From NCBI GenBank assembly GCA_964347155.1, contig CAYFXR010000070.1, positions 7,657 through 71,656 on the forward strand: a DNA stretch of 64,000 nt, in the 5' to 3' direction. Both the position numbers and the translations under genes were made by a program. Positions 10,248-44,554 of the stretch are shown in pieces. Position 1 is the first letter of the stretch. Each line of letters starts with the position of its first letter. The notes beneath the pieces were generated by a model. That model was not told where the DNA came from. It ran no database searches and saw nothing but the letters and a program-made list of their open reading frames with translations. This stretch comes from an uncultured Nitrospiraceae bacterium. GTDB taxonomy: Bacteria > Nitrospirota > Thermodesulfovibrionia > UBA6902.

Positions 10248-10712
10248 ATGTTAAAAAAAGGTCAAGCTTCCTCTTGTGAGATATTAATAAAAGCTGACAG
10301 AAAGACCGGTAACCGTAACAGATATTATCCTTTTCAAAATAATTTTACATGGAAAGGAGTAAAGGTTCAAAAGTATAAATCAAGAGGAGATGATTGGTCA
10401 GATATAAAAAGGCAGGCCTTGATAGGCGACTCTGGCGAAACTGCAAAATTTCATCTCAGATATTTTGAGATAATGCCCGGAGGATACAGCAGCTTTGAAA
10501 CTCACAAACACGAACACGTGGTAATTGGCATCAGAGGTAGAGGAAAGGCAAGGCTTGAAAAGAGGAATATTGATATTGAATTTCTCGATATTCTTTATAT
10601 TAACCCGAACACCCCACACAAATTTTATAATCCCTATAAAGAACCCTTTGGATTTTTTTGCATCGTTAATGCAAAAAGGGACAGGCCGAAGATTCTAAAA
10701 AAGCAGGGTTGA
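10248..10712 (+). CDS. Cupin-domain protein
   Basis: HKHEHVVIGIRGRGKARLE...PNTPHKF is a cupin two-His motif arrangement. Ends with TGA. Confidence 0.4.
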   Translation: MLKKGQASSCEILIKADRKTGNRNRYYPFQNNFTWKGVKVQKYKSRGDDWSDIKRQALIGDSGETAKFHLRYFEIMPGGYSSFETHKHEHVVIGIRGRGKARLEKRNIDIEFLDILYINPNTPHKFYNPYKEPFGFFCIVNAKRDRPKILKKQG

Positions 10713-38883: not shown

Positions 38884-39279
38884 ATGTAGATATTAACGGA
38901 AATAGACTGGAAGGGTTTTCTGTGCTGTTGATTGGATAATTGTTTTATTCCAGACTTTTCTGGAAATATCTTCCTTATTAAAGAATTTTTATAAGCTTAA
39001 CATAGGGAGTGAAAATAGTCTATTGATAAAAAGGTAAAAAGTTTGAAGCCCGATATAGGGCTGCATTAAGGTATCGAGATGATTTTTCCCGCCTGCTCCG
39101 CATAACCCGGCAGCAAAAGTATCGCTCAATTTAGATTTTAATATCTTGACAATATGGCAGTTGATAATACTTTTTTGCTCCTTTAAACTAAAACACATAC
39201 ATAACCCAATTCCAGTTGGGAGCATACAACTCAGTATTTTTTCTATCTGGAACCAGGATCAATGTGGAGGTCTGCGATT

Positions 39280-39774
39280 ATGGCGGAACATTCATTTGAC
39301 ATAGTCAGTAAAGTTGATATTCAGGAGGTTTCCAATGCTATCCATCAAGCAATGAAAGAAATCAAGCAGCGGTTTGATTTCAGAGGCAGTAAAAGTAATA
39401 TTGAACTTGACAGGGGCAGGAACGAAATACTTGTTTTATCTGACGATGCATACAAATTAAAAAGTGTTATTGATGTCCTGCAGAGCAAACTGATTAAGAG
39501 AAAAGTTTCCCTAAAGGCATTACATTATGGGAAAGTTGAAGATGCACTTTCGGGAACTGTTAAACAGCTTATAAGCCTTCAGCAGGGAATCCCGACAGAA
39601 AAGGGCAAAGAGATTGTGAAAGTCATAAAAAATACAAAAATCAAAGTACAGGCAGAAATCCAAAAAGACCAGCTCCGTGTCAGGGCAAAGAAGATAGATG
39701 ACCTACAGTCAATAATAAATCATTTGAAAGAGAAAGATCTGGGGATTCATATGGAGTTTGTAAATTACAGATAA
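39280..39774 (+). CDS. yajQ: YajQ-family (UPF0234) nucleotide/c-di-GMP-binding protein
   Basis: [34 protein letters not shown]...LISLQQGI...[13 protein letters not shown] aligns along its length with YajQ proteins as I recall them. Confidence 0.7.
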
Positions 39775-39881
39775 GTATAGAGTGATTGGTCATGAGTAAT
39801 GAGTTTGGAACTGAATTTAATCATATTTACTTGACTCTTAACTCCTAACTCTTAACTCTGAAGTATTGTATAATACAACGT

Positions 39882-41999
39882 ATGGGTTTTTGGGATGACA
39901 TTAAACATGATTTCAGAGCTGTATTTGAGATGGATCCTGCTGCAAGAAGCAGGCTAGAAGTTATTTTTTCTTATTCAGGATTTCATGCAATCCTGTTTCA
40001 CAGAATCAATCACGTGTTGTGGAAAATGAATATTCCCGTATTGCCCCGTTTTTTCTCCCAGGTTGCAAGATTTATTACCGGCATAGAAATACATCCTGCA
40101 GCAAAGATAGGAAAAGGGTTTTTTATTGATCACGGTATGGGCGTCGTCATAGGAGAGACAACAGAGATAGGCGAGAATTGCCTTCTTTATCAGGGAGTTA
40201 CACTTGGCGGCACCGGAAAGGAAAGGGGCAAGAGGCATCCAACTCTTGGTAATAACGTAGTAGTTGGAGCGGGCACAAAAGTTCTCGGTGCAATAACGAT
40301 CGGGGATAATGTGAAAATAGGAGCAAACTCCGTCTTGCTGAACTCTGTACCGAAGAACTCTATTGTCGTTGGCGTGCCGGGCAGGGTGATTAAAAAGAAG
40401 GTTGTAAAGATGTTAGCCGAAGGACCTGTAGAAATGCTCGATCATGTGCACATACCTGACCCGCTCGAGGAGAAATTCGAGGAAATCAAAACTTATATGA
40501 ATGATCTTGAAAGGAGAATGAGCACATTGGAAGGCAGAGGTGAAACGATTAAGGTTTTTAACACACTCAGCGGGAAAAAAGAGGATTTTGTTCCCCTTAA
40601 TTCAGGCAAGGTGAATATGTATGTATGCGGGATAACGGCTTATGACGTCTGCCATTTGGGCCATGCACGAAGTGCAATTGTATTTGATATTATAAAGCGG
40701 TACCTGAGATACAGAGGCTATGACGTAACGCATGTACGGAACATAACCGATATTGACGACAAAATTATTGCCCGTGCAGCAGAGGAGAAGATTTCTACGG
40801 AAGAGGTAGCAAAAAAATATTCAGAAGAATATTACAGGGATATGGAATTGCTCGGTGTAAGCAGGGCTGACATTGAGCCAAACGCAACGGATCACATTAA
40901 GGAAATGATAGAAAATGTTCAGGGGCTGATTGATAAAGACTATGCCTACAGTGTTGATGGAGATGTTTATTTTGAAGTCAGCAAGTTTCCGAGCTATGGA
41001 AAACTGTCAAAAAAGAACAAAGATGACCTTATGGCCGGGGCAAGGGTCGATGTGGACGAGAGGAAGAAGAGTCCCCTTGATTTTGCTTTATGGAAGGCCT
41101 CTAAGGAAGGTGAGCCTTTCTGGGAAAGCCCGTGGGGAAAAGGCAGACCGGGATGGCATATAGAATGCACGGCAATGTCGTCAAAATACCTTGGGGAAAG
41201 TTTTGATATACACGGTGGTGGAGCTGATCTTATTTTCCCGCACCATGAAAACGAAATAGCACAGAGTGAGGCTTTCACTGGCAAGCCGTTTGTAAGATAC
41301 TGGATGCATAATGGATTTATAACTGTTGATAACGAAAAGATGTCAAAATCCCTGGGAAACTTTTTTACCATCAAAGAAATCCTTGAAAAATTTGAGCCTG
41401 AGGTAGTGCGATATTTTCTCCTGACTACACATTACAGAAGTCCGATAGAGTTTTCAGATGCGCAGTTGAATGAGGCAGAGCTTTCTATCGATAGATACTA
41501 TACAACAGTGATGAGGATCAATGATTTTCTCGAAACAACTGTAACCGCCGAAAAGATTACCTCGTCGGCTGAACTTGAGGATTTACTGTCTTCATTTAGG
41601 GAAAAGTTTCACAATGCAATGAATGACGATTTCAATACGGCTTCAGTATTAGGATTCATTTTTGAGCTTGTCAGGGAAGTGAACCGATTTCTTGATTTAA
41701 ACCCTTCGGGGCAGAAGGCAAAAGACCTCGTTACCCGTACAAAAGAACTTCTTGCTGAAGGGGGAGATGTCCTTAATATATTCAACAAGACACCTGTTGA
41801 ATGGTATAGGTCGTTAATGAAAGTCAAGAAGATAGAACTTGCGGAGGAAATGCTTCATAACAAGATAGCAGAGAGACGGGAAGCACGAAAACAAAAGGAC
41901 TGGGATACTGCAGATAATATAAGAAAAGAGCTTGCAGAAAAAGGAATTATTCTTGAAGACAAGAAAGACGGGACGGCATGGAAGATCAAGGTTGGGTGA
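39882..41999 (+). CDS. cysE-cysS: Serine O-acetyltransferase (CysE) and cysteinyl-tRNA synthetase (CysS) encoded as one continuous 705-aa ORF
   Basis: N-terminal CysE hexapeptide region (GVVIGETTEIGENCLLYQGVTLGGTGK...) and CysE-type tail (LDHVHIPDP...LERRMSTLE). This is followed directly by CysS (IKVFNTLSGKKEDF, HLGHARS HIGH motif, KMSKSLGN) with no stop. An in-frame ATG at 40518 is preceded by GAAAGGAGA. Confidence 0.7.
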   Translation: MGFWDDIKHDFRAVFEMDPAARSRLEVIFSYSGFHAILFHRINHVLWKMNIPVLPRFFSQVARFITGIEIHPAAKIGKGFFIDHGMGVVIGETTEIGENCLLYQGVTLGGTGKERGKRHPTLGNNVVVGAGTKVLGAITIGDNVKIGANSVLLNSVPKNSIVVGVPGRVIKKKVVKMLAEGPVEMLDHVHIPDPLEEKFEEIKTYMNDLERRMSTLEGRGETIKVFNTLSGKKEDFVPLNSGKVNMYVCGITAYDVCHLGHARSAIVFDIIKRYLRYRGYDVTHVRNITDIDDKIIARAAEEKISTEEVAKKYSEEYYRDMELLGVSRADIEPNATDHIKEMIENVQGLIDKDYAYSVDGDVYFEVSKFPSYGKLSKKNKDDLMAGARVDVDERKKSPLDFALWKASKEGEPFWESPWGKGRPGWHIECTAMSSKYLGESFDIHGGGADLIFPHHENEIAQSEAFTGKPFVRYWMHNGFITVDNEKMSKSLGNFFTIKEILEKFEPEVVRYFLLTTHYRSPIEFSDAQLNEAELSIDRYYTTVMRINDFLETTVTAEKITSSAELEDLLSSFREKFHNAMNDDFNTASVLGFIFELVREVNRFLDLNPSGQKAKDLVTRTKELLAEGGDVLNIFNKTPVEWYRSLMKVKKIELAEEMLHNKIAERREARKQKDWDTADNIRKELAEKGIILEDKKDGTAWKIKVG

Positions 42000-42010
42000 T
42001 GAATGTTCTG

Positions 42011-42781
42011 CTAATTTCTATATTTTTTGCAAAAAACCTCTGTGATGTTCCAAAGCTCGTCTGTTAAAGATTCCTTGACCTTGGCCTGTATGAAATCTGG
42101 AATGTTTCCATAGTATGCATCGGCAATTCCACCGGTTATGCAAGCAAGGGTGTCGCTGTCGCCACCGAGAGAAATTGCATTACGGATTGCATCTTCGTAT
42201 GAGGTAGATTCAAGAAAGGCAATGATCGCCTCCGGAACAGTACCCTGACAGGATACGTCGAAGTGGTAGTGAGGGCGTATCTCGTCCAGGCTCTTTTCCA
42301 GTTTGTAACCGAATCTGTGCTGAATTTCTTTTTTGATATGTTCCTTATCCTGTGTAGTGCGGGCAAGGAAAACAGATAGTGCAGTGGCCTGAGCACCTTT
42401 AATTCCTTCAGGATGATTGTGGGTGATTTCCGCAGATTTAGCGGCTTCATCCAGGACTCTTTCGATACTGTCAAATGCAAAGCCGACCGGACTTACGCGC
42501 ATGGCCGAGCCGTTTCCCCAGCTGTTGTAGGGCCGGGGATCTTCAGAAAGCAGCCAGTAAATGAATGAACCGCCATACCCAGCATGAGGATACTTCCGCC
42601 CGATCTTTCTGATTGACGAAAGGTAATCAGAAACATCCAGGATTGATTTTGCAACGGCAACGGTCAGTACAGAGTCATCTGTAAAACGACAGAGTGGATG
42701 GAAGAGGGGAAAATCCTTTGTCTTGATTGGATAACCTTCATAAACAGAGCCGATAATATCTCCTGCAATCGCACCTATCAT
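42011..42781 (-). CDS. ADP-ribosylglycohydrolase family protein (DraG-like)
   Basis: MIGAIAGDIIGSVYEG N-terminus and ...GGDSDTLACITGGIADAYYG C-terminal metal-site motif; 256 aa. Confidence 0.7.
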   Translation of the reverse strand: MIGAIAGDIIGSVYEGYPIKTKDFPLFHPLCRFTDDSVLTVAVAKSILDVSDYLSSIRKIGRKYPHAGYGGSFIYWLLSEDPRPYNSWGNGSAMRVSPVGFAFDSIERVLDEAAKSAEITHNHPEGIKGAQATALSVFLARTTQDKEHIKKEIQHRFGYKLEKSLDEIRPHYHFDVSCQGTVPEAIIAFLESTSYEDAIRNAISLGGDSDTLACITGGIADAYYGNIPDFIQAKVKESLTDELWNITEVFCKKYRN

Positions 42782-42976: not shown

Positions 42977-43237
42977 TTATGCCGCTGTTTTTTTCTTTAT
43001 GTCCCACCCGGGAAAAACGAGAACTGCAGGATGACACCTGAGAGCTATCGCGATTACCTTCGCCCGCTCAACTCCTAGCTTGACCCGATCGTTTTCGATA
43101 GCTGAAATAGTAGATTGAGGAATTCCTGTAATTTCAGCCAGATCGTTTTGACTCATTTCTTGCAGTTCCCTGATAATCCTTACCGATTCTCCAACTGTTA
43201 CATCTACCGTCTTCTTTGCCTTTTTGAAATTTCTCAT
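42977..43237 (-). CDS. HTH XRE-family antitoxin (HigA-like)
   Basis: LQEMSQNDLAEITGIPQSTISAIENDR helix-turn-helix. The start at the internal Met abuts the upstream toxin gene stop. Confidence 0.65.
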   Translation of the reverse strand: MRNFKKAKKTVDVTVGESVRIIRELQEMSQNDLAEITGIPQSTISAIENDRVKLGVERAKVIAIALRCHPAVLVFPGWDIKKKTAA

Positions 43238-43238
43238 T

Positions 43239-43520
43239 TTATTTCCTCCTATAATCATGAGGAGTAATATTTATAACCTGGACAAATATATCTTTGGCTG
43301 CAATCTTGTAAATAATTCTATATTTTATACCTAACCTTGATGATCTAAATCCTTTCCATTCACCTCGCAAAGCCTCGTCATGGAACCCTTTGATGAATCT
43401 TAAGCCTTCCGGGCCTGATATCCTTACAATGTCTTTCCATTTTTCATAATGTTTTAATATTTCTACGGGCAATCCATTAAGCTGTTTAGTCACACGTCGA
43501 TGCTCATATATTTCCCACAT
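43239..43520 (-). CDS. RelE/ParE-superfamily toxin (HigB-like; toxin-first gene order)
   Basis: 93-aa basic protein upstream of and translationally coupled to the XRE antitoxin. Family assignment is from size, context and composition. Confidence 0.5.
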   Translation of the reverse strand: MWEIYEHRRVTKQLNGLPVEILKHYEKWKDIVRISGPEGLRFIKGFHDEALRGEWKGFRSSRLGIKYRIIYKIAAKDIFVQVINITPHDYRRK

Positions 43521-44077: not shown

Positions 44078-44554
44078 TTATGTCTTTAGTTGTTTTCTAA
44101 TATAAGTATGATCGCAATAGCTATCACCCGTTCCGATTTGATGTTTGCGTTCAAAGTCCCAGTTATTAATGTTATCTTTCGCAACTTCCCAATCGCCACT
44201 GCAAACATAAGGGCCGATGTCTATATATCCAAGCAGTATCACAAGTTCAGCAAAGGGGCAGTTTGCTACATGCAGTTTAAGAATGTTGCTGCTATTTTCA
44301 GCAATTGAAATATCGTAAAAAGGCCGTAACCATTTGGCCCTCCTGGTTATTATATCTTTCAACTTGTCGAAGTCATCAGCACTATCTACATAAGGAACGA
44401 GAATTCTCACGAAAGTTTTTGCGATCCTGACGATAATTGGGCGCATTATTTCTATAGCCTTTTCTCTTGATGAAAAAAGGGACAGGATTTTGATACACAG
44501 TATAACCGGGCCTGCTACAACAATGGCTACCAATTGTCTTAATATTTTTTTCAC
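44078..44554 (-). CDS. Hypothetical protein with N-terminal TM helix
   Basis: 158-aa ORF (MKKILRQLVAIVVAGPVILCIKIL...). No motif recognised. Confidence 0.3.
   Translation of the reverse strand: MKKILRQLVAIVVAGPVILCIKILSLFSSREKAIEIMRPIIVRIAKTFVRILVPYVDSADDFDKLKDIITRRAKWLRPFYDISIAENSSNILKLHVANCPFAELVILLGYIDIGPYVCSGDWEVAKDNINNWDFERKHQIGTGDSYCDHTYIRKQLKT

Follow-up and report, generated by a model that had tools for sequence, protein, structure and literature searches.

In a 64,000-nucleotide stretch of DNA from an uncultured Nitrospiraceae bacterium (GenBank assembly GCA_964347155.1, contig CAYFXR010000070.1, positions 7,657 to 71,656 of the forward strand; the whole stretch is called the window below), the genes for serine acetyltransferase (SAT; cysE) and cysteinyl-tRNA synthetase (CysRS; cysS) form one uninterrupted reading frame of 705 codons. 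The predicted product of this cysE-cysS gene is a bifunctional serine O-acetyltransferase/cysteinyl-tRNA synthetase polypeptide, and the gene is, judged from its conservation, maintained by selection. Taken as a whole, the data are probably best explained by a selected fusion gene that would go back to a single ancient loss of a stop codon, that would give two products in most of its family and whose internal start may have been relocated in the window organism.

A preliminary description of the window, made from the sequence alone, had proposed both the single frame, with CysE running into CysS without a stop, and its bifunctional product. The frame is confirmed by the listing of open reading frames (ORFs) together with both domain models, and the ORF translation holds each of the peptides quoted in that description. 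The bifunctional product is backed by the two equivalog models, which are both passed, and by the same fusion in every close relative.

Domain structure and distribution of the fusion

The N-terminal part was matched by the NCBIfam model TIGR01172 (cysE) with 241 bits at a cut-off of 210.65, covering aa 7-168 and model positions 1-162 of 162. The remainder was matched by TIGR00435 (cysS) with 586 bits at a cut-off of 340 (aa 223-701, model positions 1-464 of 466). The Pfam assignments agree with this division, with Hexapep and SATase_N at the N-terminus and tRNA-synt_1e (PF01406; aa 236-532, E = 5e-141), DALR_2 (PF09190) and CysS_C (PF23493) in the CysS part. Residues 1-480 of the CysS part align to residues 2-460 of the E. 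coli CysRS structure 1li5, and 3tqo aligns likewise. The CysE domain, to which its Hexapep match assigns a left-handed beta-helix core, matches the solved SATs 4n69, 1ssq and 1t3d via the motif GxxIHPAAKIGxGxxxDH. Since its first residue corresponds to residue ~80-105 of every solved SAT, the N-terminal alpha-helical domain, which makes the hexamer in SATs of the E. coli type, is absent and the enzyme is a SAT of the short type.

Among 41 homologs, H71 and the active-site region FIDHG with D83 and H84, which we take to be the catalytic residues by analogy with the E. coli and H. influenzae SAT structures, are invariant. The same holds in the CysS part for the class I signature motifs HLGH (258-261) and KMSKS (486-490) and for the residues C249, C429, H454 and E458, presumably the equivalents of the E. 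coli zinc ligands in 1li5. With its two catalytic domains intact, the polypeptide is expected both to produce O-acetylserine and to load tRNA-Cys.

A collection of 5.8 billion proteins was searched with the fusion protein, and the 120 best matches were used for all residue and length counts. All 120 are fusions of ~705 aa with both domain sets and 71-100% identity. Their sources are assemblies of NCBI, JGI, ENA and Logan, and those with a name are called 'cysteine--tRNA ligase' of Nitrospirae/Nitrospirota metagenome-assembled genomes (MAGs). The linker between the two enzymes (aa 169-222) is 54 aa long in 117 of the 120. A second protein search, seeded with the divergent member L005, revealed ~112 further fusion clusters of 705-720 aa. 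In GTDB, scanned with one genome per species and a junction-spanning alignment as query, 14 complete single-frame fusions were found (L001-L014), and one more (L021) is truncated where its contig stops; in every case the label is Nitrospirota, Thermodesulfovibrionales, Dissulfurispiraceae or similar. About 12 further fusion loci came from a scan of metagenomes. In total, the uninterrupted fusion frame occurs in no fewer than 230 protein clusters and in 14-15 species genomes, Nitrospirota MAGs without exception.

In a protein library clustered at 50% identity, the whole fusion family is covered by one representative (P0121), and the next 149 matches are ordinary CysS proteins of ~480 aa or unrelated fusions. 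The other long CysS proteins of this library are SufE-CysS, mTERF-CysS and duplicated CysS, none of them with CysE. Among these, P0267 (724 aa) carries SufE (PF02657) at aa 66-184 ahead of a complete CysRS, and is thus another case of a sulfur-metabolism domain joined to the CysRS N-terminus. P0211 is an mTERF-CysRS fusion of 1253 aa, and P0190 resembles a partly duplicated CysRS.

For the five closest DNA sequences, the ratio of nonsynonymous to synonymous substitution rates (dN/dS) is approximately 0.04 in both CysE and CysS and 0.10 in the linker; these values are rough and tell less strongly for selection, as even the closest relatives show saturation of dS. Two metagenome copies are interrupted: L083 (contig PJEL010043335.1) has an in-frame stop inside CysS, and L091 (contig Ga0100383_1004450) a frame break, although L092 with an identical junction is intact. 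Both interruptions are probably assembly or read errors, or mark pseudogenes.

The nearest unfused relatives, in which cysE is directly followed by cysS, were found in Omnitrophota, Chloroflexia and Methanomassiliicoccales/Thermoplasmata MAGs and on metagenome contigs (L015-L020, L093-L097 and L131), with 43-57% identity to the fusion in both halves. Their stand-alone CysE proteins share the tail seen in the linker, consisting of an LDH.H..DP motif and a helix; the CysE of L015, for example, ends in ...LDHIHVLDPLMQAIEELEERIKKLENR followed by the stop codon, and the unfused CysS proteins start with MKIFNTLSG.... This homology indicates that the linker is the native CysE tail, to which translation of the former inter-cistronic signal appears to have added a few residues.

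The AlphaFold (AF2) model of the fusion (mean predicted local distance difference test score, pLDDT, 79.5; predicted template modelling score 0.66) shows pLDDT values below 50 for aa 164-193, a helix at aa 194-216 and the CysRS fold from residue 223 onwards. Nearly all of the 120 homologs have hydrophobic residues at positions 199, 202, 206, 209, 213 and 216, which correspond to the a/d positions of a heptad pattern. Because solved SATs are built on trimers, the fusion probably consists of a trimeric CysE core, a short coiled-coil stalk and three CysRS modules, a picture weakened by the fact that the trimer is taken over from SAT structures and not from a modelled oligomer.

Possible start signals at the CysE/CysS junction

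In 17 fusion loci outside the window's subclade (clade A), the junction reads GGA GGN NNN ATG, encoding G-G-x-M. This is a canonical GGAGG followed by a 4-nt spacer and an in-frame ATG, which is aligned with the start of stand-alone CysS. The first of the two glycine codons is GGA in 17 of 17 cases, compared with 31% at 49 other Gly-Gly dipeptides of the same genes (p ~2e-9 assuming independence, although a few pairs are near-duplicates). Met223 is present in 105 of the 112 clusters from the L005-seeded search, and GGxM in 79 of them, with a hypervariable x (R, K, V, A, M, I, T, L, G or N). In clade A, both the Shine-Dalgarno (SD) sequence and the in-frame start are therefore conserved beyond the requirements of the protein. 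The combination of a conserved Met, a hypervariable residue and codon-specific glycines argues for initiation of free CysRS, and most of the family probably translates a single mRNA into the fusion as well as into free CysRS. The old ribosome-binding site (RBS) and start codon of cysS would accordingly survive in frame at the boundary of most fusions, held there by selection at the nucleotide level.

The boundary is different in the window. The CysE/CysS boundary lies at codon 222/223 (40545-40550) and reads GGC AGA GGT GAA ACG ATT (G-R-G-E-T-I), so that both GGAGG and ATG are lost. Neither Met nor Val is found at this position in 84 of the 116 clusters of the window's subclade. Only in the window sequence, R219 is encoded by AGA where AAG (Lys) is otherwise found, which creates the motif GAGGTGA 4 nt upstream of the ATT codon of I223. 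The true boundary of this one sequence thus combines a good SD with a start codon that is non-canonical and very weak.

A second SD-like sequence lies further upstream, inside the CysE tail. The preliminary description had placed the element GAAAGGAGAATG (40509-40520), with its in-frame ATG, at the CysS boundary; the element is present, but it lies 10 codons upstream of that boundary. Its SD-like part has fared well, as it is kept at synonymous sites across the window's subclade. The codon of E210 is GAA in 18 of 18 subclade DNA sequences, compared with a gene-wide GAA:GAG ratio of 49:51, and codon 216 is TTG in 17 of 18, TTG accounting for ~10% of the Leu codons in these genes. In the 14 sequences of the RR type (R211-R212), GAAAGGAG and TTG216 are both invariant.

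In a sliding-window comparison of 8 sequences, the ten windows with the highest synonymous identity all fell at codons ~187-236 (0.76-0.85, gene mean 0.47). With 18 sequences and the codon-usage expectation subtracted, codons 209-227 form the maximum of the gene (permutation p ~0.03, uncorrected for phylogeny). The source of the signal is CTT GAA AGG AGA together with TTG216. RNA structure was ruled out as its cause by RNAalifold, which gave -0.55 kcal/mol without real covariation and hence no conserved structure at the junction. Programmed frameshifting via the internal SD was also considered and dropped, as no conserved slippery sequence was seen by eye in the junction DNA alignment.

GAAAGGAG is complementary to the core of the anti-SD, which is conserved; its longer match presupposes the 16S tail CCUCCUUUC, as the window contains no rRNA. 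TTG216 is the only conserved in-frame codon downstream of GAAAGGAG that is capable of serving as a start, and it follows AGGAG after 10 nt. Real gene starts in the window have gaps of 4 and 11 nt between GGAGG and the start codon. In the four subclade sequences without AGGAG (L085, L163, L164 and L169), an ATG or GTG is found at codon 222 after an SD-like motif. Internal initiation of CysRS in the window organism, relocated to TTG216 after GAAAGGAG, is put forward tentatively, at somewhat less than an even chance. The boundary ATG of the subclade having been lost, the start would possibly have moved to TTG216; otherwise CysRS would be made only as the fusion.

Several points weigh against such a relocated start. 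The synonymous constraint rests on 18 related sequences. TTG216 is kept in L085, L163 and L164, which lack AGGAG, and this weakens the pairing of SD and start. A TTG start with a 10-nt spacer would be a weak initiation site, and this gap, like the 4-nt gap of clade A, lies at the edge of the usual SD spacing. The hybridisation energy of SD and anti-SD is not distinctive: the junction has the lowest median of the profile (-9.8 kcal/mol), but conserved Gly-rich motifs at codons 106 and 443-446 score -9.6 and -9.2. For this reason, the SD was judged by codon-choice controls and not by energy. RR211-212 is associated with the loss of the boundary Met (Fisher p = 1e-13, 120 clusters); as the sequences of the K type are probably a single clade, nothing beyond description is drawn from this association.

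The same points bear on the alternative that the window organism makes CysRS solely as an 80-kDa CysE-CysS protein and that GAAAGGAG...TTG does not serve initiation. Its variants explain the conserved junction by an SD-mediated pause at the domain boundary, which would aid co-translational folding or trimerisation of CysE, or by residual or hitch-hiking constraint, and together with them it has about an even chance. It gains from the absence of Met or Val at the boundary in most subclade clusters, from the decay of SD and ATG at the true boundary, from the persistence of TTG216 without AGGAG, from the weakness of a TTG start and from the position of the conserved element exactly at the end of CysE. 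Production as the fusion only does not account as well for the peak of the whole gene's synonymous constraint at the junction, which is not explained by RNA structure, or for the fixation of a rare Leu codon in 17 of 18 sequences. The four sequences that combine a missing AGGAG with ATG/GTG222 and an SD-like motif look like the upkeep of some internal start in each lineage, and the 11-nt gap at a real gene start speaks for the feasibility of the 10-nt spacer.

SAT identity, codon 213 and origin of the open frame

It is improbable that the N-terminal domain is no longer a SAT and instead serves CysRS in regulation or oligomerisation, or acts as an acetyltransferase on a different substrate. Such a change of role would fit the missing N-terminal helical domain, which all solved SATs possess, the lack of a free C-terminus and of a cysK gene among the ten neighbouring ORFs scanned, and the finding that the domain also passes the EpsC model NF041874 (236 bits). 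It is opposed by the score above the curated cysE equivalog cut-off, the invariant active-site region, the dN/dS of ~0.04 and the occurrence of short-type cysE next to cysS in the unfused relatives and in the Bacillus gltX-cysE-cysS operon (PMC5499597).

The preliminary description had further suggested that CysS could be made separately from the in-frame ATG of codon 213 (40518), directed by the adjacent GAAAGGAG. Both elements are present and ATG is the strongest start codon, yet this model has very little left in its favour. The ATG follows AGGAG after 1 nt, and with ~4 nt as the practical minimum of SD spacing it is too close for SD-directed initiation. Among the 120 homologs, codon 213 encodes Ile 107 times, Leu 7 times and Val 5 times, the single Met being that of the window protein, and the DNA relatives have ATA, ATC or ATT. 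Residue 213 moreover occupies a core heptad position of the tail helix. M213 is best read as an incidental conservative Ile-to-Met change (ATA to ATG) without a predicted role as a start. The idea of a separate CysS thus holds for the wider family, at another site (the boundary GGAGG-N4-ATG), and fails for the ATG originally proposed.

In the unfused pairs, cysE and cysS are split by a stop codon, in some cases plus up to 90 nt. In L016, L096 and L097, the cysE stop abuts the cysS ATG in frame (AGA TAG ATG AAG), so a single substitution could create the fusion. A neighbour-joining tree of the concatenated sequences, which carries no support values and to that extent leaves the case for monophyly weaker, placed the fusions in one group as opposed to the adjacent but separate outgroups. 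The fusion therefore probably has a single origin near the base of a Nitrospirota (Thermodesulfovibrionales-type) clade, where the cysE stop codon would have been lost from a tightly coupled pair in which it lay in frame directly before the ATG. An artefact or recent lesion that removed the stop in this genome only, for which one base change would suffice given the TAGATG arrangement of the nearest unfused pairs and which the preliminary description had named as its alternative, is practically out of the question, as the frame and the 54-aa linker are shared by the clusters and species genomes counted above and the linker is under purifying selection. Separate genes in close relatives, with this locus differing by one base, would have pointed to such a lesion, and every close relative is fused; a lost stop is retained only as the ancient event at the origin of the fusion.

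Putative promoter, genomic context and comparison with known systems

The coordinates of all features are compiled in Table 1.

Table 1. Features of the cysE-cysS locus (window coordinates)
Feature	Position	Strand	Basis or remark
Tandem heptamer CTTAACT x 4.3	39830..39859	+	Tandem Repeats Finder; just upstream of the -10 box
TTG-TATAAT, putative -10 element	39866..39874	+	Ends 7 nt before ATG at 39882
cysE-cysS fusion gene	39882..41999	+	705 codons + stop; sole ORF there; homologs ~705 aa full-length
CysE catalytic core, aa 1-168, short type	39882..40385	+	TIGR01172 aa 7-168; alignment to PDB SATs
Linker, putatively the native CysE C-terminal tail, aa 169-222	40386..40547	+	Segment aa 164-193 (conserved, low-confidence model), amphipathic helix aa 194-216, 6-residue connector
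In-frame SD-like GAAAGGAGA, codons E210-R211-R212	40509..40517	+	GAAAGGAG identical in 14/18 subclade DNA sequences
ATG, M213	40518..40520	+	Not conserved; 1 nt after AGGAG
TTG (L216), candidate relocated internal start	40527..40529	+	10 nt after AGGAG; start role inferred
Decayed ancestral cysS RBS/start, GAGGTGA-AACG-ATT (I223)	40537..40550	+	Junction codon tables; most other fusions GGAGG-N4-ATG
Complete CysS, aa 223-705	40548..41996	+	TIGR00435 end-to-end; alignment to 1li5 and 3tqo

No SD was found before the ATG at 39882. Of the 31 informative fusion loci, which come from both clades, 18 have a TA[TC]AAT box 5-13 nt upstream of the ATG, with a gap of 7 ± 1 nt in 12. Loci with a box at the equivalent position are L002, L003, L006, L012-L014, L082-L085, L087-L090, L162, L163, L165, L167 and L170; in L088 the gap between TATAAT and ATG amounts to 19 nt. 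A TATAAT box 7 nt before the start codon and the missing SD suggest that the fusion gene is transcribed as a leaderless mRNA from this conserved box. The internal SD would in that case be the transcript's sole canonical RBS. A second TATAAT-N6-ATG in the window coincides with the start of a 154-aa ORF at 10248.

The CTTAACT heptamer occupies the place of a -35 region, and L003, L084 and L085 have period-7 repeats of wholly different sequence at the same place (GCTGAYN, CTATTAN and TAATAAC). An Rfam scan of the whole window yielded no family at the gathering score, and thus no T-box or other known leader; the intergenic DNA before the fusion gene comprises only 107 nt. A consensus scan of 39200-42300 detected no internal sigma-70-like promoter on the + strand. 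Four terminator-like matches in this region are at chance level; three of them lie inside or beside the fusion ORF, and no break of the reading frame comes after any of these three.

The fusion gene stands alone among unrelated neighbours, outside any cys operon, and there is no second cysE or cysS in the 64-kb window. Upstream on the same strand lies a YajQ/DUF520 gene, which is kept in close relatives. The true start of this ORF (39262-39774, +) is probably the ATG at 39280, with GGAGG 9 nt upstream, and not the first ATG at 39262; the proteins of the relatives have 164 aa. An ADP-ribosylglycohydrolase gene converges 12 nt downstream of the fusion gene. Two overlapping ORFs of 93 aa at 42977-43520 (-) appear toxin-antitoxin-like by inspection only (helix-turn-helix/Xre-like and HigB/RelE-like). 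A 158-aa ORF at 44078-44554 (-) matches PF14196, L-2-amino-thiazoline-4-carboxylic acid hydrolase (E = 2e-10), a cysteine-related family; this ORF lies at a distance of 2 kb from the fusion gene and runs in the opposite direction.

In Bacillus, cysE and cysS belong to an operon under the control of a T-box leader, and the B. subtilis CysE is of the short type with a helical ..PDP.. C-terminal tail. The composition of this operon, gltX-cysE-cysS (PMC5499597), comprises the same two enzymes in the same order, cysE then cysS. They are separate polypeptides there, whereas the window has one polypeptide, no T-box and an apparently leaderless promoter. The adjacent unfused relatives described above share the tail motif and the gene order with the fusion and differ by the stop codon between the genes.

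In E. coli, infB (with its IF2 forms), clpB and cheA have in-frame internal starts and yield two products per ORF. The clade A GGAGG-N4-ATG fits this pattern of a full-length and an N-terminally truncated product; it differs in that the internal site would be the fossil RBS of a once separate gene. The archaeal SepRS-SepCysE-SepCysS 'transsulfursome' is a non-covalent, tRNA-dependent assembly that likewise physically couples cysteine formation and tRNA-Cys charging, with unrelated proteins. It links consecutive steps, in contrast to the CysE-CysS fusion polypeptide, which does not contain the intermediate step, CysK/O-acetylserine sulfhydrylase (OASS).

The cysteine synthase complex of SAT and OASS uses the SAT C-terminal tail and needs its free C-terminal Ile. 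In the fusion, the tail continues into CysRS, so that no free Ile exists. Since the CysE tails of the unfused relatives end in ...LENR, ...LRIR or ...SIRK and not in Ile, this SAT subfamily probably never used the free-Ile mechanism of complex formation with CysK.

By full-text literature search, no description of a CysE-CysRS fusion was found. What is new is the CysE-CysS architecture of known enzymes; the fusion of operon neighbours and internal starts are already well known. Aminoacyl-tRNA synthetases are rarely fused to enzymes of amino-acid biosynthesis. Through the present fusion, the first committed step of cysteine synthesis would be tied, in stoichiometry and in expression, to the use of cysteine in translation.

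A regulated gene with two outputs can be imagined, in which a leaderless mRNA gives low levels of trimeric CysE-CysRS, the fossil or relocated internal RBS independently supplies the bulk of free CysRS, and binding of tRNA-Cys or cysteine to the CysRS module allosterically tunes the SAT; this is considered unlikely. If it were true, a feedback at the protein level from translation demand to cysteine synthesis would replace the T-box RNA of the Firmicutes, and the family would represent a natural series of internal RBS kept, moved or lost after fusion.

The source databases name these proteins 'cysteine--tRNA ligase', 'cysteinyl-tRNA synthetase' or 'hypothetical protein' only, so that the clade's annotation lacks the SAT activity. 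Should both activities be borne out, a correction would be due in those reconstructions of the metabolism of Thermodesulfovibrionales-type Nitrospirota which list 'no cysE'. Beyond annotation, the family offers a natural experiment on the fate of a downstream RBS after gene fusion, which appears to have been kept in most lineages and to have decayed, or possibly been relocated, in that of the window.

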